A stretch of 49,662 bases of DNA from Escherichia phage 1W, in the sequence record OM475428. One strand, given 5' to 3'. This document shows, in pieces, positions 20,936 to 49,662 of this stretch (position 1 is its first letter; each line of letters opens with the position of its first letter). The notes beneath the pieces were generated by a model that saw only the letters and a program-made list of their open reading frames with translations, made no database searches and was not told the origin of the DNA. The position numbers and the translations under genes were made by a program.

Positions 20936-21361
20936 ATGGAATTACAGGACTGGCGAAAAGAACCTCGTAAAAACTATTCGAATGAATTCAAACTTCGTAT
21001 GGTGGAACTGGCATCACAACCTGGAGCTTGTGTTGCACAGATTGCACGTGAAAATGGCGTCAATGATAATGTTATTTTCAAATGGCTCAGGCTCTGGCAG
21101 AACGAAGGGCGTGTTTCGCGGCGTCTTCCGGTAACGACCTCTTCTGACACTGGCGTTGAATTATTACCTGTAGAAATAACGCCGGATGAGCAGAAAGAAC
21201 CTGTGGCGGCCATTGCGCCGTCTTTATCCACTTCCACTCAGACCAGAGTCAGTGCCAGTTCCTGCAAGGTGGAATTCCGTCACGGTAACATGACGCTGGA
21301 AAATCCATCGCCAGAGCTGCTCACAGTGTTGATCCGTGAACTGACCGGGAGGGGAAGATGA
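20936..21361 (+). CDS. IS66 family accessory protein (orf1/TnpA-like, HTH)
   Basis: 141 aa; IS66 orf1-like N-terminus; overlaps orf2 by 4 nt. Confidence 0.8.
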   Translation: MELQDWRKEPRKNYSNEFKLRMVELASQPGACVAQIARENGVNDNVIFKWLRLWQNEGRVSRRLPVTTSSDTGVELLPVEITPDEQKEPVAAIAPSLSTSTQTRVSASSCKVEFRHGNMTLENPSPELLTVLIRELTGRGR

Positions 21362-21708
21362 TCTCACTCCCATCAGGTACCCGTATCTGGCTCGTTGCCG
21401 GCGTTACCGATATGCGTAAATCCTTCAACGGACTGGGAGAACAGGTACAACATGTGCTGAATGATAATCCCTTCTCCGGTCACCTGTTTATCTTCCGTGG
21501 CCGACGGGGTGACACCGTCAAAATTCTTTGGGCTGATGCTGATGGTCTGTGCCTGTTCACCAAACGCCTGGAGGAAGGCCAGTTTATCTGGCCTGCGGTA
21601 CGTGACGGCAAGGTATCCATTACCCGCTCGCAACTGGCAATGCTCCTCGATAAGCTGGACTGGCGTCAGCCAAAAACATCCAGCCGTAACTCACTGACAA
21701 TGTTGTAA
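21358..21708 (+). CDS. IS66 family TnpB-like protein (orf2)
   Basis: 116 aa with the typical IS66 orf2 motif (RIWLVAGVTDMRKSFNGL). Confidence 0.85.
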   Translation: MISLPSGTRIWLVAGVTDMRKSFNGLGEQVQHVLNDNPFSGHLFIFRGRRGDTVKILWADADGLCLFTKRLEEGQFIWPAVRDGKVSITRSQLAMLLDKLDWRQPKTSSRNSLTML

Positions 21709-21738
21709 AAAACTCCTGACCGCATTATAAAAACGGTC

Positions 21739-23352
21739 ATGAGTCAGAAATACCTCATTCGCATCGCAGAGCTGGAAAGGTTGCTCTCTGAGCAGGCTGA
21801 AGCCCTCCGTCAGAAAGACCAGCAACTGAGTCTGGTTGAAGAGACGGAAGCCTTCCTGCGCTCTGCACTGACACGTGCCGAAGAAAAGATCGAAGAAGAT
21901 GAACGGGAAATAGAACATCTGCGGGCTCAGATAGAAAAACTGCGCCGGATGCTGTTCGGTACCCGTTCTGAAAAACTGCGTCGTGAAGTTGAACTGGCTG
22001 AGGCTCTGCTGAAACAACGTGAACAGGACAGCGATCGTTACAGTGGGCGGGAAGACGATCCTCAGGTTCCCCGCCAGTTGCGACAGTCGCGCCATCGTCG
22101 TCCGTTACCGGCACACCTTCCCCGTGAAATACACCGCCTGGAGCCAGAAGAAAGCTGTTGCCCGGAGTGTGGCGGTGAGCTGGATTATCTGGGGGAAGTC
22201 AGCGCTGAACAGCTGGAACTGGTGAGCAGTGCCCTGAAAGTGATCCGCACAGAACGGGTAAAAAAAGCCTGTACAAAATGTGACTGTATTGTTGAAGCAC
22301 CGGCGCCGTCCCGCCCGATAGAGCGTGGTATCGCGGGCCCCGGATTACTTGCCCGCGTGTTAACGGGAAAATACTGCGAACATCTGCCACTGTATCGTCA
22401 GAGTGAAATCTTTGCCCGCCAGGGTGTCGAACTGAGCCGGGCCTTACTCTCCAACTGGGTTGACGCGTGCTGCCAGTTAATGACACCGGTGAATGATGCC
22501 CTGTACCGTTATGTAATGAATACCCGCAAGGTTCACACTGATGACACACCGGTAAAGGTACTGGCACCGGGTCAGAAAAAGGCGAAAACAGGGCGTATCT
22601 GGACGTATGTCCGGGATGATCGCAATGTGGGTTCGTCATCTCCTCCAGCGGTCTGGTTCGCGTACTCGCCGAACCGGCAGGGGAAACACCCGGAGCAACA
22701 CCTCCGCCCCTTCCGGGGTATCCTGCAGGCGGATGCGTTCACAGGTTACGACAGGTTGTTCAGTGCAGAACGTGAAGGTGGTGCACTGACAGAAGTTGCG
22801 TGCTGGGCCCATGCCCGGCGAAAAATCCACGATGTATACATCAGCAGCAAAAGTGCGACGGCAGAAGAAGCCCTGAAGCGAATCAGTGAACTGTACGCCA
22901 TCGAGGATGAAATACGGGGATTACCGGAGTCAGAGCGTCTTGCCGTCAGGCAGCAGCGAAGCAAAGTGTTACTGACGTCGCTGCATGAATGGATGGTGGA
23001 GAAGAATGGTACGCTGTCGAAAAAATCCAGACTGGGCGAAGCGTTCAGCTATGTACTGAATCAGTGGGATGCCCTCTGTTATTACAGTGATGACGGTCTG
23101 GCGGAGGCGGATAATAATGCTGCGGAAAGAGCGCTTCGTGCAGTCTGTCTCGGAAAGAAAAACTTTATGTTCTTTGGCAGCGATCACGGCGGCGAGCGTG
23201 GAGCACTGTTGTACGGGCTGATCGGCACCTGCCGTCTGAACGGTATCGATCCGGAAGCGTATCTGCGCCATATCCTGAGCGTACTGCCGGAATGGCCTTC
23301 CAACCGAGTTGACGAACTCCTGCCATGGAACGTAGTACTCACCAATAAATAA
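21739..23352 (+). CDS. IS66 family transposase (orf3, DDE with zinc ribbon)
   Basis: 537 aa; N-terminal coiled coil, CPECGGEL zinc-ribbon motif, conserved IS66 transposase core. Confidence 0.85.
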   Translation: MSQKYLIRIAELERLLSEQAEALRQKDQQLSLVEETEAFLRSALTRAEEKIEEDEREIEHLRAQIEKLRRMLFGTRSEKLRREVELAEALLKQREQDSDRYSGREDDPQVPRQLRQSRHRRPLPAHLPREIHRLEPEESCCPECGGELDYLGEVSAEQLELVSSALKVIRTERVKKACTKCDCIVEAPAPSRPIERGIAGPGLLARVLTGKYCEHLPLYRQSEIFARQGVELSRALLSNWVDACCQLMTPVNDALYRYVMNTRKVHTDDTPVKVLAPGQKKAKTGRIWTYVRDDRNVGSSSPPAVWFAYSPNRQGKHPEQHLRPFRGILQADAFTGYDRLFSAEREGGALTEVACWAHARRKIHDVYISSKSATAEEALKRISELYAIEDEIRGLPESERLAVRQQRSKVLLTSLHEWMVEKNGTLSKKSRLGEAFSYVLNQWDALCYYSDDGLAEADNNAAERALRAVCLGKKNFMFFGSDHGGERGALLYGLIGTCRLNGIDPEAYLRHILSVLPEWPSNRVDELLPWNVVLTNK

Positions 23353-24195: not shown

Positions 24196-25053
24196 CTAAT
24201 TGGGTGATAACAGATCCTGTGTATGGGAGTTTCCCTTTTTGCGTGCGTTGATGCTGGTAACGGCAAACGTCATGATGAACAAAACCGCGAATAAGACGAC
24301 AATCGTCGGAGCTGGTGCGCTGTCGATAAAAAAGGACAACCAGACACCAGTCATTGACACTATTACCGATATGCCAGTCGCCAGTAGGAGCGCAATATGA
24401 AAGCGTTGTGTCAGGAGTACCGCAATGGCGCCAGGCGCAATGAGCAGAGAAATGGAGAGAATGATACCTACCGCTTTCAGCGTCGCCACAATGGTCAGAG
24501 AGACCATGCACAGCAGCCCATAATGCAGCCATCTCGTATGCAAACCGCTTACCTGCGCCTGTTGATAATCAAAGCTGAACAGCAAAAAATCCCGCCATTT
24601 TACGCTAATAACAAGTGTAACCAGCCCGGCAATAATCATCGTCTGGATTATATCGCCGATGGTTATCCCGAGCATGTCGCCGAAAAGAATATGGTCAAGA
24701 TGTACGTCTGGTTTGACTGCAATATACAAGATCAGACCTGCGGCAAACATGCCAGAAAAAACAATCCCCATCACTGTATCTTGCTTGATTCGGCTGTTGT
24801 CTTTCAGGTATCCCGTCGCCACCGCGCAGAATACTCCGGCGACGAATGCCCCTGTAGCCAAAGGTAACCCCAGAATCCAGGCAAGCACGATGCCAGGAAA
24901 AACCGCATGACTCATCGCGTCACCCATCAGTGCCCAACCTTTCAGGACCAGAAAGACCGACAGCAGCGCACAGGGTATGGAAACTACCAGTGAAATCAGC
25001 AGTGCGTGACTCATAAAGGTGAACTGCAGTGGCTCCAGTAATAATGCCATCAT
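24196..25053 (-). CDS. sitD: Mn/Fe ABC transporter permease SitD
   Basis: 285 aa polytopic membrane protein, ABC-3 permease family; last gene of a four-gene operon with overlapping stop/start junctions. Confidence 0.85.
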   Translation of the reverse strand: MMALLLEPLQFTFMSHALLISLVVSIPCALLSVFLVLKGWALMGDAMSHAVFPGIVLAWILGLPLATGAFVAGVFCAVATGYLKDNSRIKQDTVMGIVFSGMFAAGLILYIAVKPDVHLDHILFGDMLGITIGDIIQTMIIAGLVTLVISVKWRDFLLFSFDYQQAQVSGLHTRWLHYGLLCMVSLTIVATLKAVGIILSISLLIAPGAIAVLLTQRFHIALLLATGISVIVSMTGVWLSFFIDSAPAPTIVVLFAVLFIMTFAVTSINARKKGNSHTQDLLSPN

Positions 25054-25907
25054 GAGCGATCCTCCAGCGCCTTATGCGCACGCCGACGATTTGCCAAAAG
25101 CCCATGGGTGGGCGCAAAGACAAATGCTAAAAGAAACAGCAGTGTCTGCGCCACCACGATGATTCCACCTGTCGCGCCGTCCAGAAAGTAACTGACCCAC
25201 GCGCCGAGGAAACTGGTTACACTGCCAATAGTTACAGCAATCATGAGCAGGCGGGGAAAACGATCGGTTAACAACCATGCTGTTGCACCGGGAGTCACCA
25301 CCAGACAGATCACCAGAAAGGCACCAACCGTTTGCAGCGCCGCAACGGTCGAAACCGACAGCAGGGTGAAGAAGAGGAGTTTTAATCTGCCCGGATGCAA
25401 TCCAATAGCACGGGCGTGATTCTCGTCGAAAAAGGTCACCATAAGATCTTTCCATTTGAAAAAAAGCACGATGATCGAGAGAATGCCAATGATAGTGAGT
25501 TGCAGGATATCCGCCGGATCGATTGCCAGAATATTGCCCAGGACGATGGTCTGAATGTTCACAGATGTCGGGTTCAATGACACCATAAACAGCCCCAGGC
25601 CAAAAAAGGACGAGAAGATCAGACCGATGATGGCATCTTCTTTTAAGCGGGTGCGTTGGTTAAGAAACAGCATGCTGCCCGCAGCCAGTCCGCCGGAAAA
25701 GAAGGCTCCCAGAGAAAACGGAAGCCCCAGCATATATGCCCCCGCAACACCCGGGACAATAGAGTGCGACAACGCATCGCCAATCAGCGACCAGCCTTTT
25801 AGCATCAGATAGCATGACAGGAAAGCGCAGAGACCGCCGACCATCGCCGAGACCCACATCGCATTGAGCATATATTCATAGCTGAAGGGTTCCAGTAGCA
25901 CGTTCAT
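25050..25907 (-). CDS. sitC: Mn/Fe ABC transporter permease SitC
   Basis: 285 aa paralogous permease; overlaps neighbours by 4 nt. Confidence 0.85.
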
Positions 25908-26731
25908 CTTTCTTCCCTCTGCACCGCTGACGGTCGATGAGCCACAAAAGGGCGTTCATCGTCAGTAATAATGCTTTCTTCCGAGCCGTTAAGTGTGACA
26001 TGGCGCAGTACGCCGCTAAAAGCCAGCTCTAGGTTCTCGGCTGTAAAAGTGGTGTCTGTCGGCCCGCTTGCCAGGACGGTGCCTTTGACCATGACCGTAT
26101 AATCGCAAAATGTCGTGACGGATCCGAGATTGTGTGTTGAGACAAGCATCGTTTTGCCTTCCGCGCGTAACTCCCTCAACAGGCTGATGATTTTGGCTTC
26201 GGTTTTCACATCAACGCCAGTAAAAGGTTCATCCAGCAGGATCACATCACCCTGCTGTGCAATCGCTCTCGCCAGAAAGACGCGTTTCTTTTGTCCACCG
26301 GAAAGCTCGCCGATTTGTCGATGGCGAAAATTCACCATATCGACACGTTCCAGCGCATCGGTGACAATTTGACGATCCCTCTTTTTGGCGATACGCAACA
26401 TACCCATATGCCCATAGCGGCCCATCATCACCACATCTTCCACCAGTACAGGAAATGACCAGTCAACCTCTTCTGACTGAGGGACGTAGGCAACCAGGTT
26501 TTTCTGTAACGCCTGTCGCGTGGGAATACCCAGAACAGATATCTTTCCGCTGGTCAGACGCACAAATCCCATAATCGCTTTAAACAACGTCGATTTTCCG
26601 GAACCGTTTACCCCAACCAGAGCGGCAATAGATCCACTTGGTACTGTGAAGGATGCATCGCGCAGTGCTGTGTGCCCGTTATGCCAGGTGACAGCAACAT
26701 CATTAACGACAATGCCTGCAGATTGCATCAT
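25904..26731 (-). CDS. sitB: Mn/Fe ABC transporter ATP-binding protein SitB
   Basis: Walker [13 protein letters not shown] signature LSGGQKKR, Walker B ILLDEP. Confidence 0.9.
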
Positions 26732-27645
26732 TATTTCTCCCTTTTCCCGGCTTTAATTCCCTGTACCAGCGTACTGGTAGTAACCTTAAGAAGGTCGATA
26801 TACGTCGGTACCGGGCCGTTTTCTGTGCTCAGGGAATCGACATAGAGCACACCGCCGTAGTGTGCGCCGGTTTCACGCGCAACCTGACGCGCTGGTTTAT
26901 CGGAAATCGTACTCTCGCTAAAGACTGCCGGGATATGATTTTTCTTAACTATATCAACAACCTTACGTACCTGCTGCGGTGTTCCTTGTTGATCGGCATT
27001 AATCGGCCACAGATAAAGCTCTTTTAGCCCCAAATCGCGTGCGAGATAAGAAAAAGCCCCTTCACTGGTGACCATCCATCGCTGATTCTCAGGGAGTTCC
27101 GTAATCTGCTTACGCAGGGGGGCAAGGGTTTGGGTAATCTTGGCTTTATAAGTATCGGCATTGCGTTGGTAGGTTTGTGCATTTGCCGGATCGTATTTTA
27201 TCAACGCATCACGAATATTATCGACGTAAATCAGAGCATTATCTGGCGACATCCATGCATGGGGGTTAGGTTTGCCCTCATAGGGTCCTTCGGTGATCCC
27301 TACAGGCGTCACACCCGAAGAGACAATTACTTCTGGAACCCCATTGAGATGCTGGTAAAAGCGTTGGAACCACAATTCCAGATTCATACCATTGGCGAGA
27401 ATCAGTTGTGCCCCCTGCGCACGTTTAATATCGCCAGGGGTAGGCTGATACTCATGAATTTCTGCACCAGGCTTGGTTATGGATGAGACTTCTGCAGCAT
27501 CTCCCGCCACGTTTTTGGCCATATCCGCGATGATGGTAAATGTTGTAATGACCTTAAATTTTTCAGTTGCACTTGCCTGAAATGCGATCGAGCAGGTGAG
27601 TGCGAGGCCCCCCAAGAGCATGGTTACTTTTTTTATTGAGCGCAT
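26731..27645 (-). CDS. sitA: Periplasmic Mn/Fe-binding protein SitA (cluster A-I substrate-binding protein) with signal peptide
   Basis: 304 aa; N-terminal signal peptide; TroA/ZnuA-like fold features; first gene of the operon. Confidence 0.9.
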
Positions 27646-27748: not shown

Positions 27749-28078
27749 GGCCCAAAACAGGGATTAGTTTGTTTCCTGCTGGATGAAAGGACTCTTGGGA
27801 TAGCACATGCCGCACGAAGAGCAGCATTACATGATGTTTTGTCGAATGAGCTACGAATCCTGATAGAAATACGAAACAAGCTAGCACATGGACAATGGAT
27901 CTATCCCTTCAATAATGAAGGAAATACTGTGGACCCTGATAAATATAAATTAATCAATAAAGAAAACTTGCAGTCACTCCAATTCAAATATTCATTAGCA
28001 CAGCATTTAGTTGACGCTGTACATGATTTGGTTGTAAGTCCTACGACATTCGAACGAGATTTCGAAAGCCATTTTTAA
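27749..28078 (+). pseudogene. 5'-truncated remnant of a HEPN-like (R-x4-H motif) gene
   Basis: Open frame without any in-frame ATG (the track start is TTG); contains EIRNKLAHG (Rx4H); begins right at the sit promoter region, suggesting truncation by the sit insertion. Confidence 0.4.
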
Positions 28079-28431
28079 AAATTATATCAAGTACGAACAA
28101 ACTTAGTGACAAAAGACTACGAAAAATATAAAACAATTTTAGTATTAAGTAGAGAGAAATTTCGTTCTGCTAGGACGCAGCAATAGGTTCATGAGATTCT
28201 CTGATACTTGTTACCTTAGTAAGCCTTAAATTTTTAAAAATTCTTTTACGTCCACTCCTCGCTCATAACAGGCATTAACTACATTTATCTTCATTGGCTA
28301 TGCAAGTCGTAATAAAAGGTGGGACAAAACTGAGACACATAAGCTCTCACAAAGGTCTGCAAGGCCTCACATGTATTGAGATGTTAATAAAATGTAGACT
28401 TGTAATTTTGATATAAATGGTAGATAAAACC

Positions 28432-28443
28432 TTTCCCCAAAAT
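28432..28443 (+). repeat. Arm-type-like repeat TTTCCCCAAAAT on the left side of attP
   Basis: Fourth copy of the TTCCCCAAAA(C/T) motif that is triplicated at 28791-28828. Confidence 0.45.
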
Positions 28444-28560
28444 AAAAACGAACGTCAATGAAATCAAATGGTTGAATAAAGTTGATTTTGGCTAATAAAA
28501 AAACAATAAAATAATTTTTATTATTAAATATCAATGACTTAAACTTAATGTTTTTATATA

Positions 28561-28725
28561 CTGCTGCGCCATATGGGTTGGACTGAAGCGGCTGACCTGA
28601 TTGTTAAAGGTATGGAAGGCGCAATCAACGCCAAGACCGTAACCTATGACTTCGAACGTCTGATGGAAGGCGCTAAACTGCTGAAATGTTCAGAGTTTGG
28701 TGATGCGATCATCAAGAATATGTAA
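28561..28725 (+). other. icd: Phage-borne 3' fragment of icd (isocitrate dehydrogenase C-terminus); the attP crossover region lies at its 5' edge
   Basis: In-frame translation [54 protein letters not shown] matches the E. coli Icd C-terminus from recall, with upstream sequence unrelated to icd. Phage 21 and e14 are known to integrate into icd and carry such a replacement fragment. Confidence 0.8.
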
Positions 28726-28748
28726 TCACTACATGTGTTAAATATTGA

Positions 28749-28777
28749 AACGGGCGTATAACACGCCCGTTGTTTTA
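28749..28777 (+). terminator. Intrinsic terminator after the icd fragment
   Basis: Stem aacgggcgt / acgcccgtt with a 5-nt loop, followed by gtttta. Confidence 0.65.
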
Positions 28778-28790
28778 TGATGATGTAAAA

Positions 28791-28828
28791 TCTTCCCCAA
28801 AACTTTCCCCAAAACCCTTCCCCAAAAC
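28791..28828 (+). repeat. Three tandem direct repeats (tc/t/cc)TTCCCCAAAAC; candidate integrase arm-type binding sites
   Basis: Three consecutive 12-13-bp units between the icd fragment and the int 3' end; one more copy at 28432-28443. Confidence 0.55.
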
Positions 28829-28838
28829 TGGCTGTTTT

Positions 28839-29981
28839 CTATGCTGTTTTGATATCTACGATAATCCAGTCTTTACCACGATCATCATTGTATCGGTCGG
28901 TCATTTTTCTGGATTTATGGCCTAACAACTTTTGCGTATCCAGACCCTGTTCCCGATATAACCGTTCTGACAGAGATCGCTGCTCATGAAATGTGGGCGC
29001 AGTTCCTTGCTCCCATTTTATGCCACATTTTTCCCTGGCCTTTTTAAAAGCCGTTGTCAGAGTATTCGCAGAAACCTGGTCTCCTCTGTTTGCTTGAGAG
29101 GTTGTGTGACGGTAATGGACCAGATATTTACTAACAACAGCATCCCTGCACTGAGATATAACTTCACGAAGGGTAATATTCAGAGCATCGCATTTCAGGT
29201 TAAGCGGAATAGCAAGTTTTGAACCGGTTTTTTCCTGAGTAATGTGCAACATGTCGTCCCAGATATCAGAGAATTTCAAATTGCAGATATCGCCTAAACG
29301 TTGTCCAGTGACAAGAGCAAGTAGCATCCCGCATTTTAAATAGGGCTGCCGTCTGCTTACGCTGTCAAATATTGCCTGCCATTCGGGCAGTGATAATCTT
29401 TGGCGGTTTACTCGATTTCGCGGTTGTTTTGTTGCCTGCGCTGGGTTAAATCCTGGCGGAACATGTCCTGCGTGTTGTGCTTCTTTGAAGACGTCGATTA
29501 ACACCATTCTCACGACTTGCGCCATCCTGTTATGACCTTCAGCCTTTACAGCATCAATTATTTCGGCAATATCAAGTGCGGTAATATCCTTGAGGTGTTG
29601 CATTCCACAATGCTCACGGAAAAGACGAATGGGTTTGCCTTTTTGCCGATAGGAGTTGGGTCTTAGTTCATTATGTTGCAGCCTGTCCTCCTGGATAGAA
29701 ATATATTTATCAAGCCATTCTGTCACCGTAATGTCTGAGCGCCTGCCTTTCATTCTTTCCAGACGCTCATTGACGCTTAATATTTGTCGGGTACGTTGTT
29801 CAGCAATAATGGTATTTGCTTCAGTAGCAACTTGTTTTGCTTCATTCTCATCAGTTCCTAAGCTATGAAAACGACCGGATAGTGGATGTTTGTATTGCCA
29901 ATATACCTTTCCGGTTCGCTTATCTAATTTGCAATATAAATTGGGTATAGAGATTTTGTGAGATCGGGGTCTAGCAGCCAT
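28839..29981 (-). CDS. int: Tyrosine integrase (lambda Int family)
   Basis: 380 aa; C-terminal catalytic region LLGHKSRKMTDRYNDDRGKDW resembles lambda Int (LLGHKSDTMASQYRDDRG); adjacent to xis and att. Confidence 0.9.
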   Translation of the reverse strand: MAARPRSHKISIPNLYCKLDKRTGKVYWQYKHPLSGRFHSLGTDENEAKQVATEANTIIAEQRTRQILSVNERLERMKGRRSDITVTEWLDKYISIQEDRLQHNELRPNSYRQKGKPIRLFREHCGMQHLKDITALDIAEIIDAVKAEGHNRMAQVVRMVLIDVFKEAQHAGHVPPGFNPAQATKQPRNRVNRQRLSLPEWQAIFDSVSRRQPYLKCGMLLALVTGQRLGDICNLKFSDIWDDMLHITQEKTGSKLAIPLNLKCDALNITLREVISQCRDAVVSKYLVHYRHTTSQANRGDQVSANTLTTAFKKAREKCGIKWEQGTAPTFHEQRSLSERLYREQGLDTQKLLGHKSRKMTDRYNDDRGKDWIIVDIKTA

Positions 29982-30207
29982 CAGCGATTATCCGTTGGAG
30001 TTTTGGGTTTGCGTTTATTGGGAGTTGCGGTTCTGCAAGCGTTCCTACAAAACGGGAATTTCGGTCAATCATCCAGTAGCGACCAACTTTTATAGCGGGT
30101 GGGGCCATCATTTTCCCTTGCGCGTATTTTTTCAGAACTCGCTCACTTGGTGCTAAGTCCCCAAATTCTTCTTTAGCCCAGTCCTGTAAAGTGATTAGTC
30201 GAGACAT
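29971..30207 (-). CDS. xis: Excisionase
   Basis: 78 aa overlapping the int start; winged-helix Xis-like sequence (KVGRYWMIDRN). Confidence 0.75.
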   Translation of the reverse strand: MSRLITLQDWAKEEFGDLAPSERVLKKYAQGKMMAPPAIKVGRYWMIDRNSRFVGTLAEPQLPINANPKLQRIIADGC

Positions 30208-39873: not shown

Positions 39874-41400
39874 ATGAAAAAAGCCATAGCATATATGCGA
39901 TTTTCATCACCAGGTCAGATGTCTGGTGATTCATTAAACCGCCAGAGAAGGCTTATTACTGAATGGCTAAAGGTAAATAGTGATTATTACCTTGATACCG
40001 TAACGTATGAAGATTTGGGGTTAAGCGCATTCAATGGAAAGCATGCACAATCAGGAGCTTTTTCGGAATTTTTAGATGCTATAGAACATGGTTACATATT
40101 GCCAGGGACTACATTGTTAGTTGAAAGTCTGGACAGACTTTCAAGAGAAAAAGTCGGTGAAGCGATTGAGCGTCTGAAATTGATTTTGAATCACGGTATT
40201 GATGTTATAACTCTTTGCGATAATACAGTCTATAATATAGACTCATTGAATGAGCCATATTCATTAATAAAAGCCATACTTATAGCACAAAGGGCAAATG
40301 AAGAAAGCGAGATAAAGTCAAGTCGGGTTAAATTATCATGGAAGAAAAAACGGCAGGATGCACTGGAATCAGGCACGATTATGACGGCGTCTTGTCCGAG
40401 ATGGCTCTCATTGGATGACAAAAGAACAGCTTTTATTCCAGACCCCGACAGGGTGAAAACGATTGAGCTAATTTTTAAACTCAGGATGGAAAGGCGATCA
40501 TTGAATGCAATAGCTAAGTATTTAAATGATCATGCTGTAAAAAATTTTTCAGGAAAAGAAAGTGCATGGGGGCCTTCTGTAATTGAAAAATTATTAGCGA
40601 ATAAAGCTCTGATAGGTATATGCGTACCTTCATATCGTGCAAGAGGGAAAGGGATAAGTGAAATCGCTGGCTATTATCCCAGAGTCATATCAGATGATTT
40701 GTTTTACGCTGTACAGGAAATTCGGTTGGCACCTTTTGGTATTAGCAATAGTAGCAAGAATCCTATGCTAATAAATCTACTTCGAACAGTTATGAAGTGT
40801 GAGGCTTGTGGTAATACCATGATTGTTCATGCGGTATCTGGACGTTTGCATGGCTATTATGTTTGTCCGATGAGAAGATTACATCGATGTGACAGGCCAT
40901 CAATAAAAAGAGATTTGGTTGATTATAATATCATTAATGAATTGCTTTTTAATTGTAGCAAAATTCAACCAGTTGAAAACAAGAAAGATGCTAATGAAAC
41001 TTTAGAGTTAAAAATTATTGAGCTTCAGATGAAAATTAATAATTTAATCGTTGCATTGTCTGTCGCGCCTGAAGTTACCGCTATAGCAGAGAAAATAAGA
41101 CTATTAGATAAGGAATTACGAAGGGCTTCGGTATCATTAAAAACTTTGAAGAGTAAAGGGGTGAGTTCACTTGGTGATTTTCATGCTATTGATTTAACCA
41201 GTAAAAATGGGCGAGAGCTATGTCGTACACTTGCCTATAAAATATTCGAAAAAATTATAATTAATACAGATAATAAAACCTGTGATATCTATTTTATGAA
41301 TGGCATTGTTTTTAAACACTATCCTTTAATGAAAGTAATATCCGCCCAGCAGGCGATAAGTACTCTTAAATATATGGTTGATGGTGAGGTTTATTTTTGA
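39874..41400 (+). CDS. ybcK: Large serine recombinase (resolvase/invertase catalytic domain, recombinase domain, zinc ribbon); DLP12 YbcK-like
   Basis: 508 aa; N-terminal catalytic region with a Ser in MRFSSPGQ; Cys cluster CEACGN...CPMRRLHRC; AT-rich gene. Confidence 0.8.
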   Translation: MKKAIAYMRFSSPGQMSGDSLNRQRRLITEWLKVNSDYYLDTVTYEDLGLSAFNGKHAQSGAFSEFLDAIEHGYILPGTTLLVESLDRLSREKVGEAIERLKLILNHGIDVITLCDNTVYNIDSLNEPYSLIKAILIAQRANEESEIKSSRVKLSWKKKRQDALESGTIMTASCPRWLSLDDKRTAFIPDPDRVKTIELIFKLRMERRSLNAIAKYLNDHAVKNFSGKESAWGPSVIEKLLANKALIGICVPSYRARGKGISEIAGYYPRVISDDLFYAVQEIRLAPFGISNSSKNPMLINLLRTVMKCEACGNTMIVHAVSGRLHGYYVCPMRRLHRCDRPSIKRDLVDYNIINELLFNCSKIQPVENKKDANETLELKIIELQMKINNLIVALSVAPEVTAIAEKIRLLDKELRRASVSLKTLKSKGVSSLGDFHAIDLTSKNGRELCRTLAYKIFEKIIINTDNKTCDIYFMNGIVFKHYPLMKVISAQQAISTLKYMVDGEVYF

Positions 41401-41724
41401 GTAATAATCACTTTTTCAACCGTGCTATGGTATGAAAGTAAAGTAACTAATATGATATTAACTATCTTGAACGAAGCGCCCTGAGCTATAGTTTTACTAT
41501 AGGCACTGTCACTGGATGTTGGCATTCTTGCTCTAGTAGCTCAACAATACCCAATCACAAAACAATTCACTGATAACAAACTTTGTGCACGTGCTTGGTT
41601 ATGGCGAACAGGTGATGTTAACCTCTTGCCAGAATGCCACTCCACTTCATTAAGTATCTGAGCACCGAGAGGCTGGTCACGCCCCCATTAAAAATAATTT
41701 CTTTTGAATCGAGTGAAATAGGTT

Positions 41725-41751
41725 AGCCCGCATAAGTGCGGGCTGCTTTTT
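41725..41751. terminator. Bidirectional hairpin terminator between ybcK and the convergent hydrolase gene
   Basis: Stem agcccgca / tgcgggct followed by gcttttt on the plus strand; abuts the hydrolase stop on the minus strand. Confidence 0.6.
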
Positions 41752-42793
41752 ACAGGTCAGCGTTTGTTTTTTGTTGTTGGGTAGCGGTTTTTATGGGGGT
41801 TCCCAGGTTTTTAGTAAACCACTCAACAACTCTGTTTATAATAATTGGCTGATACCATGTATTATCGCCATGCTCGGCCCCTTCTACCAGCACGTACTCA
41901 GCGTTATCACCGTTCTTCTTCAACATCCTGAATAGTTTGGCGCTTTGCTCAGGTGAAACCAGAGTGTCTTTGCTACCATGCATAATAAGAAATGGGGGTT
42001 TTACTCCTTTCATATGTCCGATTGGACTGGCGTTTAGCGCTTTTTCTTTTGACGCTGTGATGGGGGCTCCCGCAAAATTTCTGAATGCAGGGCCATTGAT
42101 CATTAAGGCTTCGGTTACGGCAGGAGAGCGATGAACCTCCTGCACTGATTCAGGGAACCCCTCGCCAATATTCAACAAGTCAGAAATCCCATAAAGTGTG
42201 GCAACTGCCTGAACATCTGAGGATTGCTGAAGAAAGTCACCTTTATCAAAGGTTTTGTCACCATTTGTAGTTCCCATCATCTGGGCAAGCCATCCACCGG
42301 CAGAGTCACCCAGAACTCCGATTCTTTGAGGATCAATCCCATAATTGCTGGCATGCTCTCTCAGGTAACGTATTGCAGCTTTTCCATCCTCAACTGGTGC
42401 TGGAAATGTATCAGGAATTGTTCTGTATTCTACAGCGGCCACAACAAAACCAGCTTCTGCCAGAGCCATTCTCATTTCAATAAATTTGTCATGTTCAGAA
42501 GACATGAATCCGCCGCCGGGATAATAAATAATGGCTGGTTTTAAATCATTTGTTCGCGGGACAAGAACTGACATGTGAAGCTGTCTGACAGAACGAGTTC
42601 CTTTTATCTGGGAATAAACAACATCACCAATGAGATCGACCTGGTTTCTGGTCGGTGAAACACTAATGATATCTGCACCCGGGGTGTAACCAGGAAGATT
42701 AGTCTGGACAGGTGTTGCACAACTCCCGACCGACATGGCCATTGACATACCATACAATAGTGTTGCAGATGATAATATCTTGTTAATTTTCAT
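41750..42793 (-). CDS. Secreted/lipoprotein alpha/beta-hydrolase (esterase/lipase family)
   Basis: 347 aa; signal peptide with a Cys (MSVGSC); oxyanion-hole motif YYPGGGF; nucleophile elbow GDSAGG. Confidence 0.75.
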   Translation of the reverse strand: MKINKILSSATLLYGMSMAMSVGSCATPVQTNLPGYTPGADIISVSPTRNQVDLIGDVVYSQIKGTRSVRQLHMSVLVPRTNDLKPAIIYYPGGGFMSSEHDKFIEMRMALAEAGFVVAAVEYRTIPDTFPAPVEDGKAAIRYLREHASNYGIDPQRIGVLGDSAGGWLAQMMGTTNGDKTFDKGDFLQQSSDVQAVATLYGISDLLNIGEGFPESVQEVHRSPAVTEALMINGPAFRNFAGAPITASKEKALNASPIGHMKGVKPPFLIMHGSKDTLVSPEQSAKLFRMLKKNGDNAEYVLVEGAEHGDNTWYQPIIINRVVEWFTKNLGTPIKTATQQQKTNADL

Positions 42794-43240
42794 GTTTTAC
42801 ATGCCTTGACTTATCGGATGAAATTCTCTTACTGAATTTAACGGCAGTTTAATAGCCGTACAACTCGTGGTAGCCAGGGAAATATCCCAGTCGTGGTTAA
42901 GGTTGTACTTGACGGCTATTATTTCAACAATGCTTAAAGTGAGAGCTTAAGGTTATGCGTATGTTTTACAGTCCGAGTAGATTCTGACCAATAGCTTCTT
43001 TGTATAATTCTGTCAGAAATAAATCTTGGCTTGCATGAAGTTTGAGACCTTATCTTGTTTGATTATGAATAATCAATTCGCCATAATTGTATCACCGGAG
43101 CCTGAACAACTCCGGTGACTTCTGCGCTAAACGGGGACGTTTATGCGCACACACAATCCAAACTCTCTTCTCCCTTCACAGATGCAGAAATGCACCTGCG
43201 TTTTTTTGCATCCAGCGTCTGACCTCTGTGGAGGTGAAGC

Positions 43241-43696
43241 GTGAACCTACCACAAGATGGCATCAAACTGCATCGCGGTAACTTCATCGCTATCGGCCAG
43301 CAGATCCAGCCTTATCTGGAGGACGGAAAATGCTTTCGCATGGTGCTTAAACCGTGGCGTGAGAAACGCAGTCTTTCCCAGAATGCACTCAGCCATATGT
43401 GGTACAGCGAAATCAGTGAATACCTCATCAGCAGGGGGAAATCGTTCGCTACCGCAGCATGGGTAAAAGATGCTCTCAAACACACATACCTCGGTTATGA
43501 AACCAAGGACCTGGTTGATGTCGTAACCGGCGAAATCACTACTATCCAGTCGTTACGCCATACCTCCGATCTTGATACCGGAGAGATGTATGTCTTCCTG
43601 TGTAAGGTTGAAGCCTGGGCGATGAATATTGGCTGCCACCTGACTATTCCGCAGAGCTGCGAGTTCCAGCTGCTGCGCGACAAGCAGGAGGCGTAA
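43241..43696 (+). CDS. ybcN: YbcN-like protein (DLP12 nin-region protein)
   Basis: 151 aa; matches my recollection of E. coli YbcN; located in the nin region before ninE. Confidence 0.7.
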
Positions 43697-43866
43697 TGGC
43701 TACACCGCTTATTCGTGTCATGAACGGACACATCTACAAAGTACCAAATCGTCGTAAGCGTAAACCTGAGCTGAAGCCATCCGAAATACCAACACTGCTC
43801 GGGTATACCGCCAGCCTGGTTGATAAAAAATGGTTGCGACTGGCAGCAAGGAGGAATCATGGCTGA
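43696..43866 (+). CDS. ninE: NinE-like small protein
   Basis: 56-aa ORF (below the ORF-track cutoff) with ATG at 43696 and basic composition (NRRKRKPELKPSE ... WLRLAARR); overlaps the ybcO start. Confidence 0.55.
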   Translation: MATPLIRVMNGHIYKVPNRRKRKPELKPSEIPTLLGYTASLVDKKWLRLAARRNHG

Positions 43867-44149
43867 TTTGAGAAAAGCAGCGCGTGGTCGGGAATGCCAG
43901 GTAAGAATCCCTGGCGTATGTAATGGCAATCCTGAAACGTCAGTACTGGCACATATCCGGCTGGCTGGATTGTGCTGTACCGGTATCAAACCGCCAGACC
44001 TGATTGCCACCATTGCATGTTCTGCCTGCCACGACGAAATCGACCGTCGCACGCATTTTGTTGACGCTGGATATGCAAAAGAATGCGCGCTGGAAGGTAT
44101 GGCGAGAACACAGGTTATCTGGTTGAAAGAGGGGGTTATTGAGGCGTGA
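43859..44149 (+). CDS. ybcO: YbcO-like protein (DUF1364, Cys-rich putative nuclease)
   Basis: 96 aa from [32 protein letters not shown]; Cys/His cluster; precedes rusA as in DLP12. Confidence 0.7.
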
Positions 44150-44508
44150 ATACCTACAGCATCACATTACCCTGGCCGCCGAGCAATAATCGCTATTACC
44201 GCCATAATCGCGGACGCACGCATATCAGCGCAGAGGGGCAGGCATACCGCGATAATGTCGCCCGAATCATTAAAAACGCAATGCTGGATATCGGCCTGGC
44301 TATTCCTGTGAAAATCAGCATTGAGTGCCACATGCCGGATCGCCGTCGCCGTGACCTTGATAATCTGCAAAAGGCCGCTTTTGACGCACTCACCAAAGCA
44401 GGTTTCTGGCTGGATGATGCTCAGGTCGTTGATTACCGCGTTGTGAAGATGCCCGTTACCAAAGGTGGGAAGCTGGAGCTGACTATCACTGAACTGGGAG
44501 ATGAATGA
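44146..44508 (+). CDS. rusA: Holliday junction resolvase RusA
   Basis: 120 aa; near-identical to E. coli RusA from recall ([26 protein letters not shown]). Confidence 0.9.
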
Positions 44509-44645
44509 TGTTTGAGTCTTATATGGCAGAGCGTCTTCGCCGCCGCTGGGTGCGCCTGCGCTTATATCGTTTTCCTGGTTCTGTTTTGACCGATTACCGA
44601 ATACTGAAGAATTACGCCAAAACCCTGACAGGAGCAGGAGTATGA
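44505..44645 (+). CDS. ylcG: YlcG-like small protein
   Basis: 46-aa ORF ([26 protein letters not shown]) overlapping the rusA stop, at the position of DLP12 ylcG. Confidence 0.55.
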
Positions 44646-44730
44646 AGTCAGAGATAACAATCAACTAATACTGTTTTGTTGATTTTTGCTTGTAATTGGC
44701 GTTCTGGTCTGATTTTTGTGGAGTAAGTTG

Positions 44731-45114
44731 ATGCGTGATATTCAGATGGTTCTTGAGCGTTGGGGAGCGTGGGCGGCTAATAATCATGAAGATGTGACCT
44801 GGTCGTCCGTTGCCGCCGGTTTTAAGGGATTAATTCCTTCAAAAGTAAAATCTCGCCCGCAATGTTGTGACGATGACGCGATGATCATTTGCGGGTGCAT
44901 GGCCCGTCTGAAAAAGAACAACAGCGATTTACACGATTTATTAGTAGATTATTATGTATGTGGTATGACATTCATGTCACTGGCAAGTAAGCATTGCTGC
45001 TCGGATGGTTATATCGGGAAAAGGTTACAGAAGGCTGAGGGCATAATTGAAGGGATGTTAATGGCATTAGATATCCGGTTAGATATGGATATCGTTGCTA
45101 ATAATTCTAATTGA
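44731..45114 (+). CDS. quuD: Late gene antiterminator Q (Q82/QuuD-like)
   Basis: About 127 aa from [16 protein letters not shown]; Cys-rich zinc-binding region; last gene before the late promoter region. Confidence 0.8.
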
Positions 45115-45251
45115 TATGCAATTGTTTACTAAAAGTTATTAAAAATGGGGCGTGGAAACGCCCCCAAAATAAAGGGTAATATATAACAGAAGGTTTATAT
45201 AGTAAGAAGCAAGGTAGTGCTTCTAAAGGAAGTGGCTTGAGGGCTCCACTT
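45115..45251 (+). promoter_or_regulatory. Late promoter PR' / qut region (inferred)
   Basis: AT-rich segment between Q and the tR'-like hairpin; position inferred by analogy with lambda; promoter elements not pinpointed. Confidence 0.4.
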
Positions 45252-45291
45252 ATATGTTGCGGAGGCAAAGCCTCCCGCAACATATCTTTTT
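45252..45291 (+). terminator. tR'-like intrinsic terminator downstream of Q
   Basis: Perfect 14-bp stem atatgttgcggagg / cctcccgcaacatat followed by cttttt. Confidence 0.7.
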
Positions 45292-45302
45292 CGTAAGTCA
45301 GA

Positions 45303-46385
45303 TTAGAACTGATAAACCAGACCTACAGCGACGATGTCGTCGGTATCAATACCAGCTGTTTTGGTAAACTTACTATCGTCAATTAAGTTGATTTTGTAAT
45401 CAACAAAAGTGGACATGTTTTTATTAAAGTAGTAAGTAGCACCGACATCGACATACTTGACTAAGTCTCGGTCACCATGAACACCAAGGTCTTTACCTTT
45501 TGACTGAAGGTAAGCAACAGATGGTCGCAGACCGAAGTCAAACTGATATTGTGCTACTGCTTCAAAGTTTTGTGCTTTGTTTGCAATATGGTTATTACCA
45601 AAAACGGTCATATTCTGAGTTTCAGAATATGTGGTAGCCAGATAGATATTGTTCGCATCATATTTCAGGCCTGCAGCCCATACTTCCGCATTTTTGCCGG
45701 AGGCATTGAATTTGCTCTTACCATAGGCGACCTGACCGTCAGTGCGATCTGATTTAGCATAGGTTGCACCCACGCCGAATCCTTCATACTCATAAGTAGT
45801 GGAGAAACCGAAACCATCACCATTGACTTCAGTTACGTCAGTGCGGTCATTTTTACCCTGATACTGAGCAGCAAAGTTCAGGCCATCGACCAGACCAAAG
45901 AAGTCGTTGTTACGATAAGTTGCAACACCAGTAGTGCGACCAGTCATGAACACATCTGTTTGGGTCCAGGTATCACCACCGAATTCTGGCAGGACGTCAG
46001 TCCACGCACCGATGTCGTATGCTACACCGTAGTTACGGCCGTAATCGATTGAGCCGTAATCACCAAATTTCAGGCCTGCAAATGCAAGACGGGTTTTGTC
46101 TTTGGAAGAACCTTGAGATTCAGCACGGTTGCCTTTGAATTCATATTCCCACTGACCGAAACCAGTCAGTTGATCGTTGATTTGGGTTTCACCTTTGAAG
46201 CCAAGACGGGCATAAGTAGTATCACCATCATCTGCATCATTAGAGGAGAAGTAGTGCTTGGCATTAACTTTCCCGTATAGATCCAGCTTGTTACTGTCTT
46301 TATTATAAATTTCAGCTGCCTGAGCAGACATCGCCATCAGTACTGATGCAGCTACAGCAGAAATTGCCACTGTTAATTTTTTCAT
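45303..46385 (-). CDS. nmpC: Outer membrane porin (OmpC/OmpF/NmpC-Lc family) with signal peptide
   Basis: 360 aa; signal peptide ending AQA-AEIYNK; C-terminal aromatic residue (VYQF); the position between Q and lysis genes matches DLP12 nmpC and PA-2 lc. Confidence 0.85.
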
Positions 46386-48943: not shown

Positions 48944-48955
48944 GGGCGGCGACCT
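48944..48955 (+). other. cosN cohesive-end sequence GGGCGGCGACCT
   Basis: Exact match to the lambda 12-nt cohesive end in its junction context (…CCGACAGGTTACG|GGGCGGCGACCT|CGCGG). Confidence 0.9.
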
Positions 48956-49131: not shown

Positions 49132-49297
49132 ATGAAGGTTAATAAAAAGAGGCTTGCCGAAATTTTCAACGTGGACCCGCGGACGATTGAACGCTGGCAG
49201 TCTCAGGGACTCCCTTGCGCCTCCAAAGGTAGTAAGGGCATTGAATCTGTATTTGATACTGCCATGGCAATTCAGTGGTATGCGCAGAGGGAAACTG
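49132..49297 (+). CDS. nu1: Terminase small subunit, 5' portion (continues at window position 1; the gene wraps around the circular contig)
   Basis: [28 protein letters not shown]...; 49169-49297 is identical to window 1-129. Confidence 0.85.

Positions 49298-49662
<365 letters not shown>

Follow-up and report, generated by a model that had tools for sequence, protein, structure and literature searches.

The DNA between the sitABCD operon and the integrase gene of Escherichia phage 1W (sequence record OM475428) carries what looks like the 3′ end of a host gene, which raises the question of whether this locus is the attachment site of the phage and, if so, where within it the strands are exchanged and which sequences the integrase would recognize. 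The window, that is the whole stretch of DNA analyzed, comprises 49,662 nucleotides. Within it, the segment 28431-28827 is, with a probability of about 95%, the ~397-bp attP of a phage 21-type lambdoid phage. The feature belongs to the long-known family of icd-targeting attP sites of phage 21 and e14, which was described decades ago; the phage itself has already been deposited and the homologous region of phage 21 has been annotated feature by feature.

The window represents a free, circularly closed lambdoid phage genome, as follows from a 129-bp circular overlap, the lambda gene order, the presence of cos and the absence of host chromosome. The first 129 bases are repeated at 49169-49297, which gives a contig unit of 49,168 bp. 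Beyond 49297 the contig runs into Ns, then the Illumina P5 adapter in reverse complement (49311-49339) and finally ~320 nt of poly-G containing Ns; the genome unit is thus 49,168 bp, with 49169-49662 being an assembly artefact at the contig end. The single cos site, of lambda type (GGGCGGCGACCT), is located at 48944-48955. Over positions 20000-44000 the window shows 100.0% identity to Escherichia virus Lambda_4C10 (LR595861.1), phage 4A7 (49,168 bp) and phage 3W, with 100% identity to Lambda_4C10 over the 801 bp around attP. The open reading frame (ORF) map follows lambda gene order, and the genes outside the attachment region include:

1 to ~23.4 kb, plus strand: terminase, head and tail genes, from the ORF map
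20936-23352: IS66-family insertion, with an HTH_Tnp_1 accessory protein and a DDE_Tnp_IS66 transposase
24196-27645, minus strand: sitABCD iron/manganese ABC transporter operon, at the position of the lambda 'b region', directly left of attP
27839-28078, plus strand: 79-aa ORF remnant between sitA and attP, with an RNKLAH (Rx4H, HEPN-like) motif
28839-29981, minus strand: int, a heterobivalent tyrosine integrase of phage 21 type, from its identity to phage 21 Int and from Pfam
29971-30207, minus strand: xis, excisionase (Pfam Exc, E=7e-6)
39874-41400: large serine recombinase, YbcK-like
41750-42793, minus strand: BD-FAE alpha/beta hydrolase
45303-46385, minus strand: OmpC-family porin

To the right of xis the map continues with exo/bet, a cI-like repressor, replication genes and lysis genes, and the cargo genes at 39874-46385 occupy the nin/late-regulatory region. 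The IS66-family element sits between the tail-fiber genes and the sit operon, and the SE15 prophage has IS66-like genes at the matching position. The ORF remnant at 27839-28078, for which a Pfam search gave no match, may be a decayed defense or abortive-infection gene; phage 21 gene 31 was considered as its counterpart and rejected, as the two are not homologous.

The attachment region itself is made up of the following elements, with distances given relative to the center of the 10-bp core block:

28431-28442, plus strand: candidate arm-type Int site of the P arm, CTTTCCCCAAAA, with an exact TTCCCCAAAA at 28433-28442 (center ~-133)
28462-28474, plus strand: putative IHF consensus site, AATCAAATGGTTG, one of four WATCAANNNNTTR matches in the 49.6-kb window (-104)
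28529-28541, plus strand: second IHF consensus match, TATCAATGACTTA (-37)
28562-28571, plus strand: core TGCTGCGCCA, the first 10 bp common with attB, from the start of host homology and the lysogen junctions
28562-28725, plus strand: phage-borne icd 3′ end, beginning within codon 363 and including the stop codon; at attL it takes the place of the host tail
28749-28778, plus strand: icd intrinsic terminator carried by the phage, a hairpin (28749-28771) followed by GTTTTAT
28791-28827, plus strand: P′ arm, three direct candidate arm-type sites with consensus YYTTCCCCAAAA (P′1 28791-28802, P′2 28803-28814, P′3 28816-28827), from the repeats, their conservation and the phage 21 annotation

The sequence-only reading had proposed that 28561-28725 encodes the C terminus of isocitrate dehydrogenase in frame, followed by a terminator, and that the upstream DNA is unrelated and AT-rich. 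Both proposals were borne out. The in-frame translation of 28561-28725 is the Icd C terminus (54 codons), the peptide corresponds to the C-terminal part of the Pfam Iso_dh profile (positions 301-348 of 348, E=4e-6), and the terminator hairpin has a predicted energy of -15.6 kcal/mol (z = -4.2). The edges of the homology were taken from an alignment of the window, phage 21, K-12 icd, K-12 icdC, and both attL and attR of a natural lysogen. Similarity to the host extends over 28562-28778, starting abruptly at 28562 with TGCTGCGCCA and comprising the last 164 bp of E. coli icd together with the terminator. The alignment against E. coli icd that had been suggested as a check therefore gives a clear identity boundary at 28562, and the start proposed at 28561 is correct as to the reading frame, although nucleotide identity with host icd begins one base inside it. 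The right edge of the homology is located at ~28776-28778, past the stop codon and the terminator, and in genomes without the P′ arm the BLAST match to window positions 28700-28900 ends at query positions 77-79, which is the same boundary. The icd segment was found by BLAST in 5425 of 5426 complete E. coli genomes. On the other side of the core, 28431-28561 is unrelated to host sequence in the alignment and has a GC content of 20.6%, compared with 47% for the icd fragment. At 28534-28562 on the plus strand, a sigma-70-like promoter match (ATGACT-17-TATACT, 9/12) ends at the core and points into the icd fragment. This is probably a chance match in AT-rich DNA, because the region contains fewer promoter-like matches than shuffled sequence; an active promoter here would drive transcription of the icd pseudogene displaced to attR.

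Natural lysogens locate the point of recombination. In E. coli A13, attL consists of a complete icd directly followed by the gene for a 380-aa integrase and then that for an excisionase, and attR, ~46 kb downstream, comprises sitDCBA followed by the AT-rich P arm and an icd pseudogene, beyond which are the host genes ycgX and bluR. The same attL/attR arrangement is present in SE15 and 118UI, so that the proposed search of lysogen genomes for att junctions within icd was successful in all three strains. The attL of both A13 and SE15 is base-for-base identical to the window from 28562 rightwards, whereas their attR carries host alleles at 28572, 28590, 28593, 28629 and 28632. As attL is of phage type and attR of host type from 28572 onward, strand exchange is placed within 28562-28571, and the crossover region of 28555-28575 that was predicted from the sequence is narrowed to these 10 bp. 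The switch point in K-12 carrying e14 is the same as in A13 and SE15. The junction of the icd end, P′ arm and int is present in 1679 of 5426 complete E. coli genomes (~31%), and the junction between a 21-type P arm and the icd fragment in 1465 of 5426. Inverted core-type half-sites were looked for around 28562-28571 by eye and by repeat search, and none was convincing.

The arms of the site are marked by a short repeat. Exact copies of TTCCCCAAAAC are found at 28793-28803, 28805-28815 and 28818-28828, with a fourth copy at 28433-28443 (TTCCCCAAAAT) that matches at 10/11 positions; the repeats thus flank the core on both sides as had been noticed, but the fourth is not an exact copy, as it ends in T and not in C. 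The 10-mer TTCCCCAAAA has exactly four copies genome-wide, all in the attP region, and the repeat search groups a single four-copy family. In 100 shuffles a mean of 1.26 repeat matches with at most one mismatch was obtained, and only one shuffle reached 5. Relative to the center of the core block the four copies of TTCCCCAAAA lie at -133, +227, +239 and +252. The sequence-only reading had called these distances typical of integrase arm sites, which holds for the P-arm copy (-133, lambda-like) but not for the P′ copies (+227 to +252). Conservation was assessed in five 21-type phages aligned at attP (the window phage, Perceval, ev017, 2E9 and phage 21), in which none of the 51 arm-site positions is variable, whereas 8% of the flanking positions without an assigned role do vary in that alignment. 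Phage D2 (OM475427.1) was left out because from 28440 on it has host icd sequence in place of the P arm. This record, deposited as a 'partial genome' and with Ns in the P′ repeats, appears to be chimeric at attP, with host icd coding sequence from the position equivalent to 28440.

The IHF consensus at -104 is common to the window phage, phage 21 and e14, and the sole substitution within it among 21-type phages falls in the degenerate NNNN spacer. The second match, at -37, is not conserved in phage 21, Perceval, ev017 and 2E9, with 4/13 positions variable, and is probably not essential. Two of the four IHF consensus matches of the whole window are located in the P arm; none was found in the long interval between the core and the P′ sites. 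A possible fifth arm site, the inverted TTAGCCAAAA at -80 (2 mismatches), is conserved in phage 21 but is not claimed here, because e14 has no counterpart and 53 matches of that quality occur genome-wide. From position, uniqueness, conservation and the parallel with e14 described below, we infer that the four repeats are arm-type sites for Int and that the -104 match is a site for IHF. The arm-binding domain of Int needs arm-type sites, and the repeats are the sole candidates.

The integrase gene adjoining the P′ arm encodes a protein with 99% identity to phage 21 Int (377/380 residues) and 60% identity to e14 IntE, in agreement with the earlier proposal of a phage 21/e14-type arrangement. The protein contains both Arm-DNA-bind_1 (PF09003, E=2e-28) and Phage_integrase (PF00589) domains, and residues R228, K251, H332, R335, H355 and Y364 align with the six catalytic residues of lambda Int. 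The end of int is 11 bp from P′3 and xis overlaps int by 11 bp, with an excisionase annotated at the matching position in phage 21 and in the lysogens. Judged by its domains, the RKHRHY residues and the adjacent xis, int/xis/attP is classed as a heterobivalent tyrosine integrase system of the lambda family.

Of the known systems, the attachment region is closest to that of phage 21 (OL657228.1, M61865.1; Campbell laboratory), the genome of which was announced in PMC9119081. The order of parts is the same and all site positions are identical, with the P-arm YYTTCCCCAAAA site, the IHF consensus at -104, the core TGCTGCGCCA, the 165-bp icd tail, the terminator, the three P′ sites, int and xis common to both phages. 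Record OL657228.1 annotates an icd pseudogene, a terminator, 'attP P1P2P3, consensus YYTTCCCCAAAA', a tyrosine integrase and an excisionase in this same order. Features of a phage 21-type icd-targeting attP that are found here are the type of int, the icd tail with its terminator, the repeats and the lysogen junctions. Across 28281-28900 identity to phage 21 is 93.6%, corresponding to ~40 substitutions in 620 bp, none of them in the arm sites, whereas left of 28281 the window DNA is unrelated to phage 21. The IHF consensus at -37 is present in the window phage and absent from phage 21. The b region of phage 21 also carries a sit-type ABC transporter, but the remaining genome is a different mosaic, and the record matching the window is assigned to the genus Bievrevirus and phage 21 to Jouyvirus.

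A hairpin on the minus strand at 28336-28375 (-14.9 kcal/mol, z = -1.3), with a TTGYN6TTGY cII-box-like match at 28349-28362, lies beyond the P arm as seen from int, in the 28281-28430 block that is conserved with phage 21. According to Campbell (PMC3530522), phage 21 int is regulated in an unusual manner via sequences downstream of int, and this hairpin may be the sib-like element with cII boxes mentioned there. A sib-like retroregulator in 28270-28440 of the minus strand was nevertheless rejected as a candidate, with z = -0.08 overall, a local hairpin that is not significant and cII-box matches that are not enriched. The svsR sRNA of the icd-integrated prophage NC-SV was likewise considered for the att region and rejected, as it lies at the 3′ end of cI.

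The cryptic prophage e14 of E. coli K-12 (icd/icdC, IntE) provides a comparison for the arm sites. Its attP was rebuilt from the left arm of K-12 attR and the right arm of K-12 attL. It uses the same attB in icd, has the same core, and carries a 165-bp replacement icd tail with terminator, which differs from the phage tail at two residues (D398 and E414). Its IHF consensus is at -104 as in the window, and its P arm is otherwise unrelated. In the window phage int directly adjoins the P′ arm; in e14, attL and intE are separated by ymfD, ymfE and lit. The arm repeat of e14 is GTTATCAAAA (one copy TTTATCAAAA) at -133, +228, +239 and +252, in place of TTCCCCAAAA. The presence of a different repeat at matching positions supports the arm-type reading that had been made from the repeats. 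With different repeats at the same coordinates and Int proteins that are 60% identical, integrases sharing a core would differ in arm specificity, in keeping with the account by Campbell that phage 21 and e14 use the same icd site with different specificities set on the phage DNA (PMC3530522).

The more distant lambda attP shares the integrase family, the RKHRHY residues, the adjacent xis and a location immediately downstream of int, and it likewise has arm sites in both arms, three of them in tandem in P′. The lambda P arm contains IHF sites, where the window phage has consensus matches. Lambda integrates at an intergenic site. Its Int has ~36% identity (130 identities), and it uses another arm-type sequence (AGTCACTAT-like). 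The nearest P′ arm-type match in the lambda record is at +54 and a P-arm match at -112, whereas the P′ sites of the window phage start at +227; lambda attP also lacks a host gene fragment, in contrast to the 217 bp of host-like sequence present here. The P′ arm is unusually long, with ~175 bp extra relative to lambda, because the icd tail and terminator are embedded in it. Work by Wang et al. in 1997 reportedly put the minimal phage 21 attP at 366-418 bp and tied its length to the icd segment; the attP span 28431-28827 is 397 bp.

Another record with icd sequence, vB_EcoM-689R6 (ON470584.1), was examined as a 21-type attP and rejected, as it includes all of the host icd gene, downstream of which is an island of another kind, encoding a hypothetical protein, a DUF262 protein and another integrase. 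This record suggests that a further, non-21-type element also adjoins icd.

Three other explanations of the locus were considered. It is very unlikely that the TTCCCCAAAAC repeats are not arm sites and instead bind Xis or a host factor or regulate int, with Int acting at the core only. The three P′ copies are found just 11-48 bp beyond the int stop, where 3′-end regulatory elements could sit, and the regulation of phage 21 int through downstream sequences (PMC3530522) would be in line with such a role. However, Int carries a strong lambda-type arm-binding domain that needs arm sites, and the repeats flank the core on both sides, occur at no other place in the genome and are invariant in 21-type phages though the flanking bases vary. 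Moreover, e14, with a different Int, has another repeat at the same coordinates, and the annotators of phage 21 label the repeats as attP subsites. An extremely unlikely explanation is that the region is a hybrid junction between tandem prophages at icd, with the attR of a sitABCD element fused to the next attL. Such arrays probably exist, as some E. coli genomes have up to 4-5 matches to the att region, and chromosomal sitABCD does adjoin an icd fragment. For this window a tandem junction is refuted because the contig is circularly closed, forming a 49,168-bp unit with one cos and no host genes; the window is also identical to the deposited phages 4C10, 4A7 and 3W, and in lysogens the sit and int sides are at opposite ends of the prophage, ~47-53 kb apart.

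It is scarcely credible that the icd fragment was acquired by chance through imprecise excision and has no role in integration, with the real core elsewhere. Flanking host DNA is picked up by phages, and the fragment lacks a ribosome-binding site and is listed as a pseudogene in the phage 21 record, but in all lysogens examined the recombination junction falls at the left edge of the homology. The fragment is conserved in e14 and, with synonymous change only, in all 21-type phages, and the same Icd accession (WP_000444487.1) is found at attL in three independent lysogens.

If the region is a phage 21-type attP, as we favor, the N-terminal arm-binding domain of Int would bind the four TTCCCCAAAA sites, one in P and three in P′, its C-terminal domains would bind core sites around TGCTGCGCCA at 28562-28571, and IHF would bend the P arm at -104. 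The resulting intasome would capture attB at host icd codons 363-366, with strands exchanged in the 10-bp block. Since attP continues rightwards from the exchange point as a copy of the icd 3′ end with its terminator, the interrupted icd would be rebuilt at attL with the phage-supplied tail and stay functional. The host's own tail would be left at attR as a promoterless pseudogene, next to the b-region cargo sitABCD. The 217 bp of embedded host-like DNA would push the P′ sites ~175 bp farther from the core than in lambda, and the intasome would have to span the 225 bp between the core and these sites. We infer the binding of Int and IHF to the named sites and the exact positions of cleavage from sequence. 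In the lysogens, the sitABCD operon indeed ends beside the displaced icd pseudogene at attR.

The consequence of integration for the Icd protein depends on the host, as host tails differ. Relative to K-12 icd, the tail of which stems from e14, the phage tail has the replacements D398E and E414K, and relative to the displaced K-12 icdC it has E410D and E414K. The displaced host tails of A13 and SE15 show synonymous differences only (five for A13). The expectation that lysogeny alters the C terminus of host Icd is consequently correct with respect to K-12 (D398E, E414K) but does not apply to A13 and SE15. The Icd protein at attL has the accession WP_000444487.1 in A13, SE15 and 118UI alike. Between the window and phage 21 there are seven codon differences in the icd tail, including TCA to AGC (serine), all of which are synonymous, and the icd tails of 21-type phages in general are separated by synonymous differences only. 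Such a pattern is expected if selection maintains a functional Icd tail after integration. An Asp/Glu replacement connected with e14 was the subject of Hill et al. 1989, as summarised in PMC6379469.

The core also contains a polymorphism: codon 364 of icd is either CTG or TTA, both leucine, a synonymous change at 28564 and 28566 that falls inside the 10-bp core, and phages of the 2E9 group have TGTTACGCCA in place of TGCTGCGCCA, with TTA as codon 364. Both core alleles are common in E. coli icd, and each occurs with both P-arm types in 21-type phages. Their combinations were counted in 5426 complete E. coli genomes with 34-nt megablast queries, each 28-nt seed spanning the variable bases and only exact 34-mers being accepted. 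The counts, which are not phylogenetically independent, are:

host-left flank with TTA: 1847 genomes
host-left flank with CTG: ~2571 genomes
p21-type P arm with TTA: 108
p21-type P arm with CTG: ~637
window-type P arm with CTG: ~333
window-type P arm (one variant base in most) with TTA: 255

Co-occurrence of alleles was determined from concatenated query pairs, as the number of places minus the number of records. Mixed attL/attR alleles were found in at most 4 of the ~637 cases with a p21-type P arm and CTG, where ~217 would be expected if the alleles were independent, in at most 1 of 108 with a p21-type P arm and TTA (~51 expected) and in 0 of ~333 with a window-type P arm and CTG (~113 expected). 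As a control, position 28572, six bases to the right of 28566, has C in attR and T in attL in at least 584 genomes, with T present in all free 21-type phage genomes examined. Concordance at 28564 and 28566 and discordance at 28572 place the recombination switch between 28566 and 28572. This suggests that 28564 and 28566 lie in an overlap that requires identity, although the concordance could equally well stem from allele conversion at the time of integration. Tentatively, and at somewhat less than even odds, CTG/TTA would lie in the overlap and split 21-type phages and their hosts into two integration-compatibility groups, with occasional conversion to the host allele. The attL/attR concordance of CTG and TTA may be new. 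Many of the CTG lysogens are well-known clinical and probiotic strains, probably of phylogroup B2. An apparent contrast in the rate of lysogeny, 6% of TTA hosts compared with 38% of CTG hosts, is not stressed, because it shrank to ~20% compared with 38% after inclusion of the window-type P arms that have a TTA core.

Integration of phage 21 and e14 into icd is a textbook example of the targeting of a gene in an essential pathway without its inactivation, by means of a phage-supplied tail, and to this the main finding adds little new biology. The site could be recognized as an attP from raw sequence, and the element is common, with a 21-type int beside icd in ~31% of complete E. coli genomes. 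The parallel with e14, in which other repeats occupy the same coordinates, constitutes a clean comparative argument for the arm sites, and the concordance of core alleles provides a small, testable lead on the requirements for overlap identity in natural populations.
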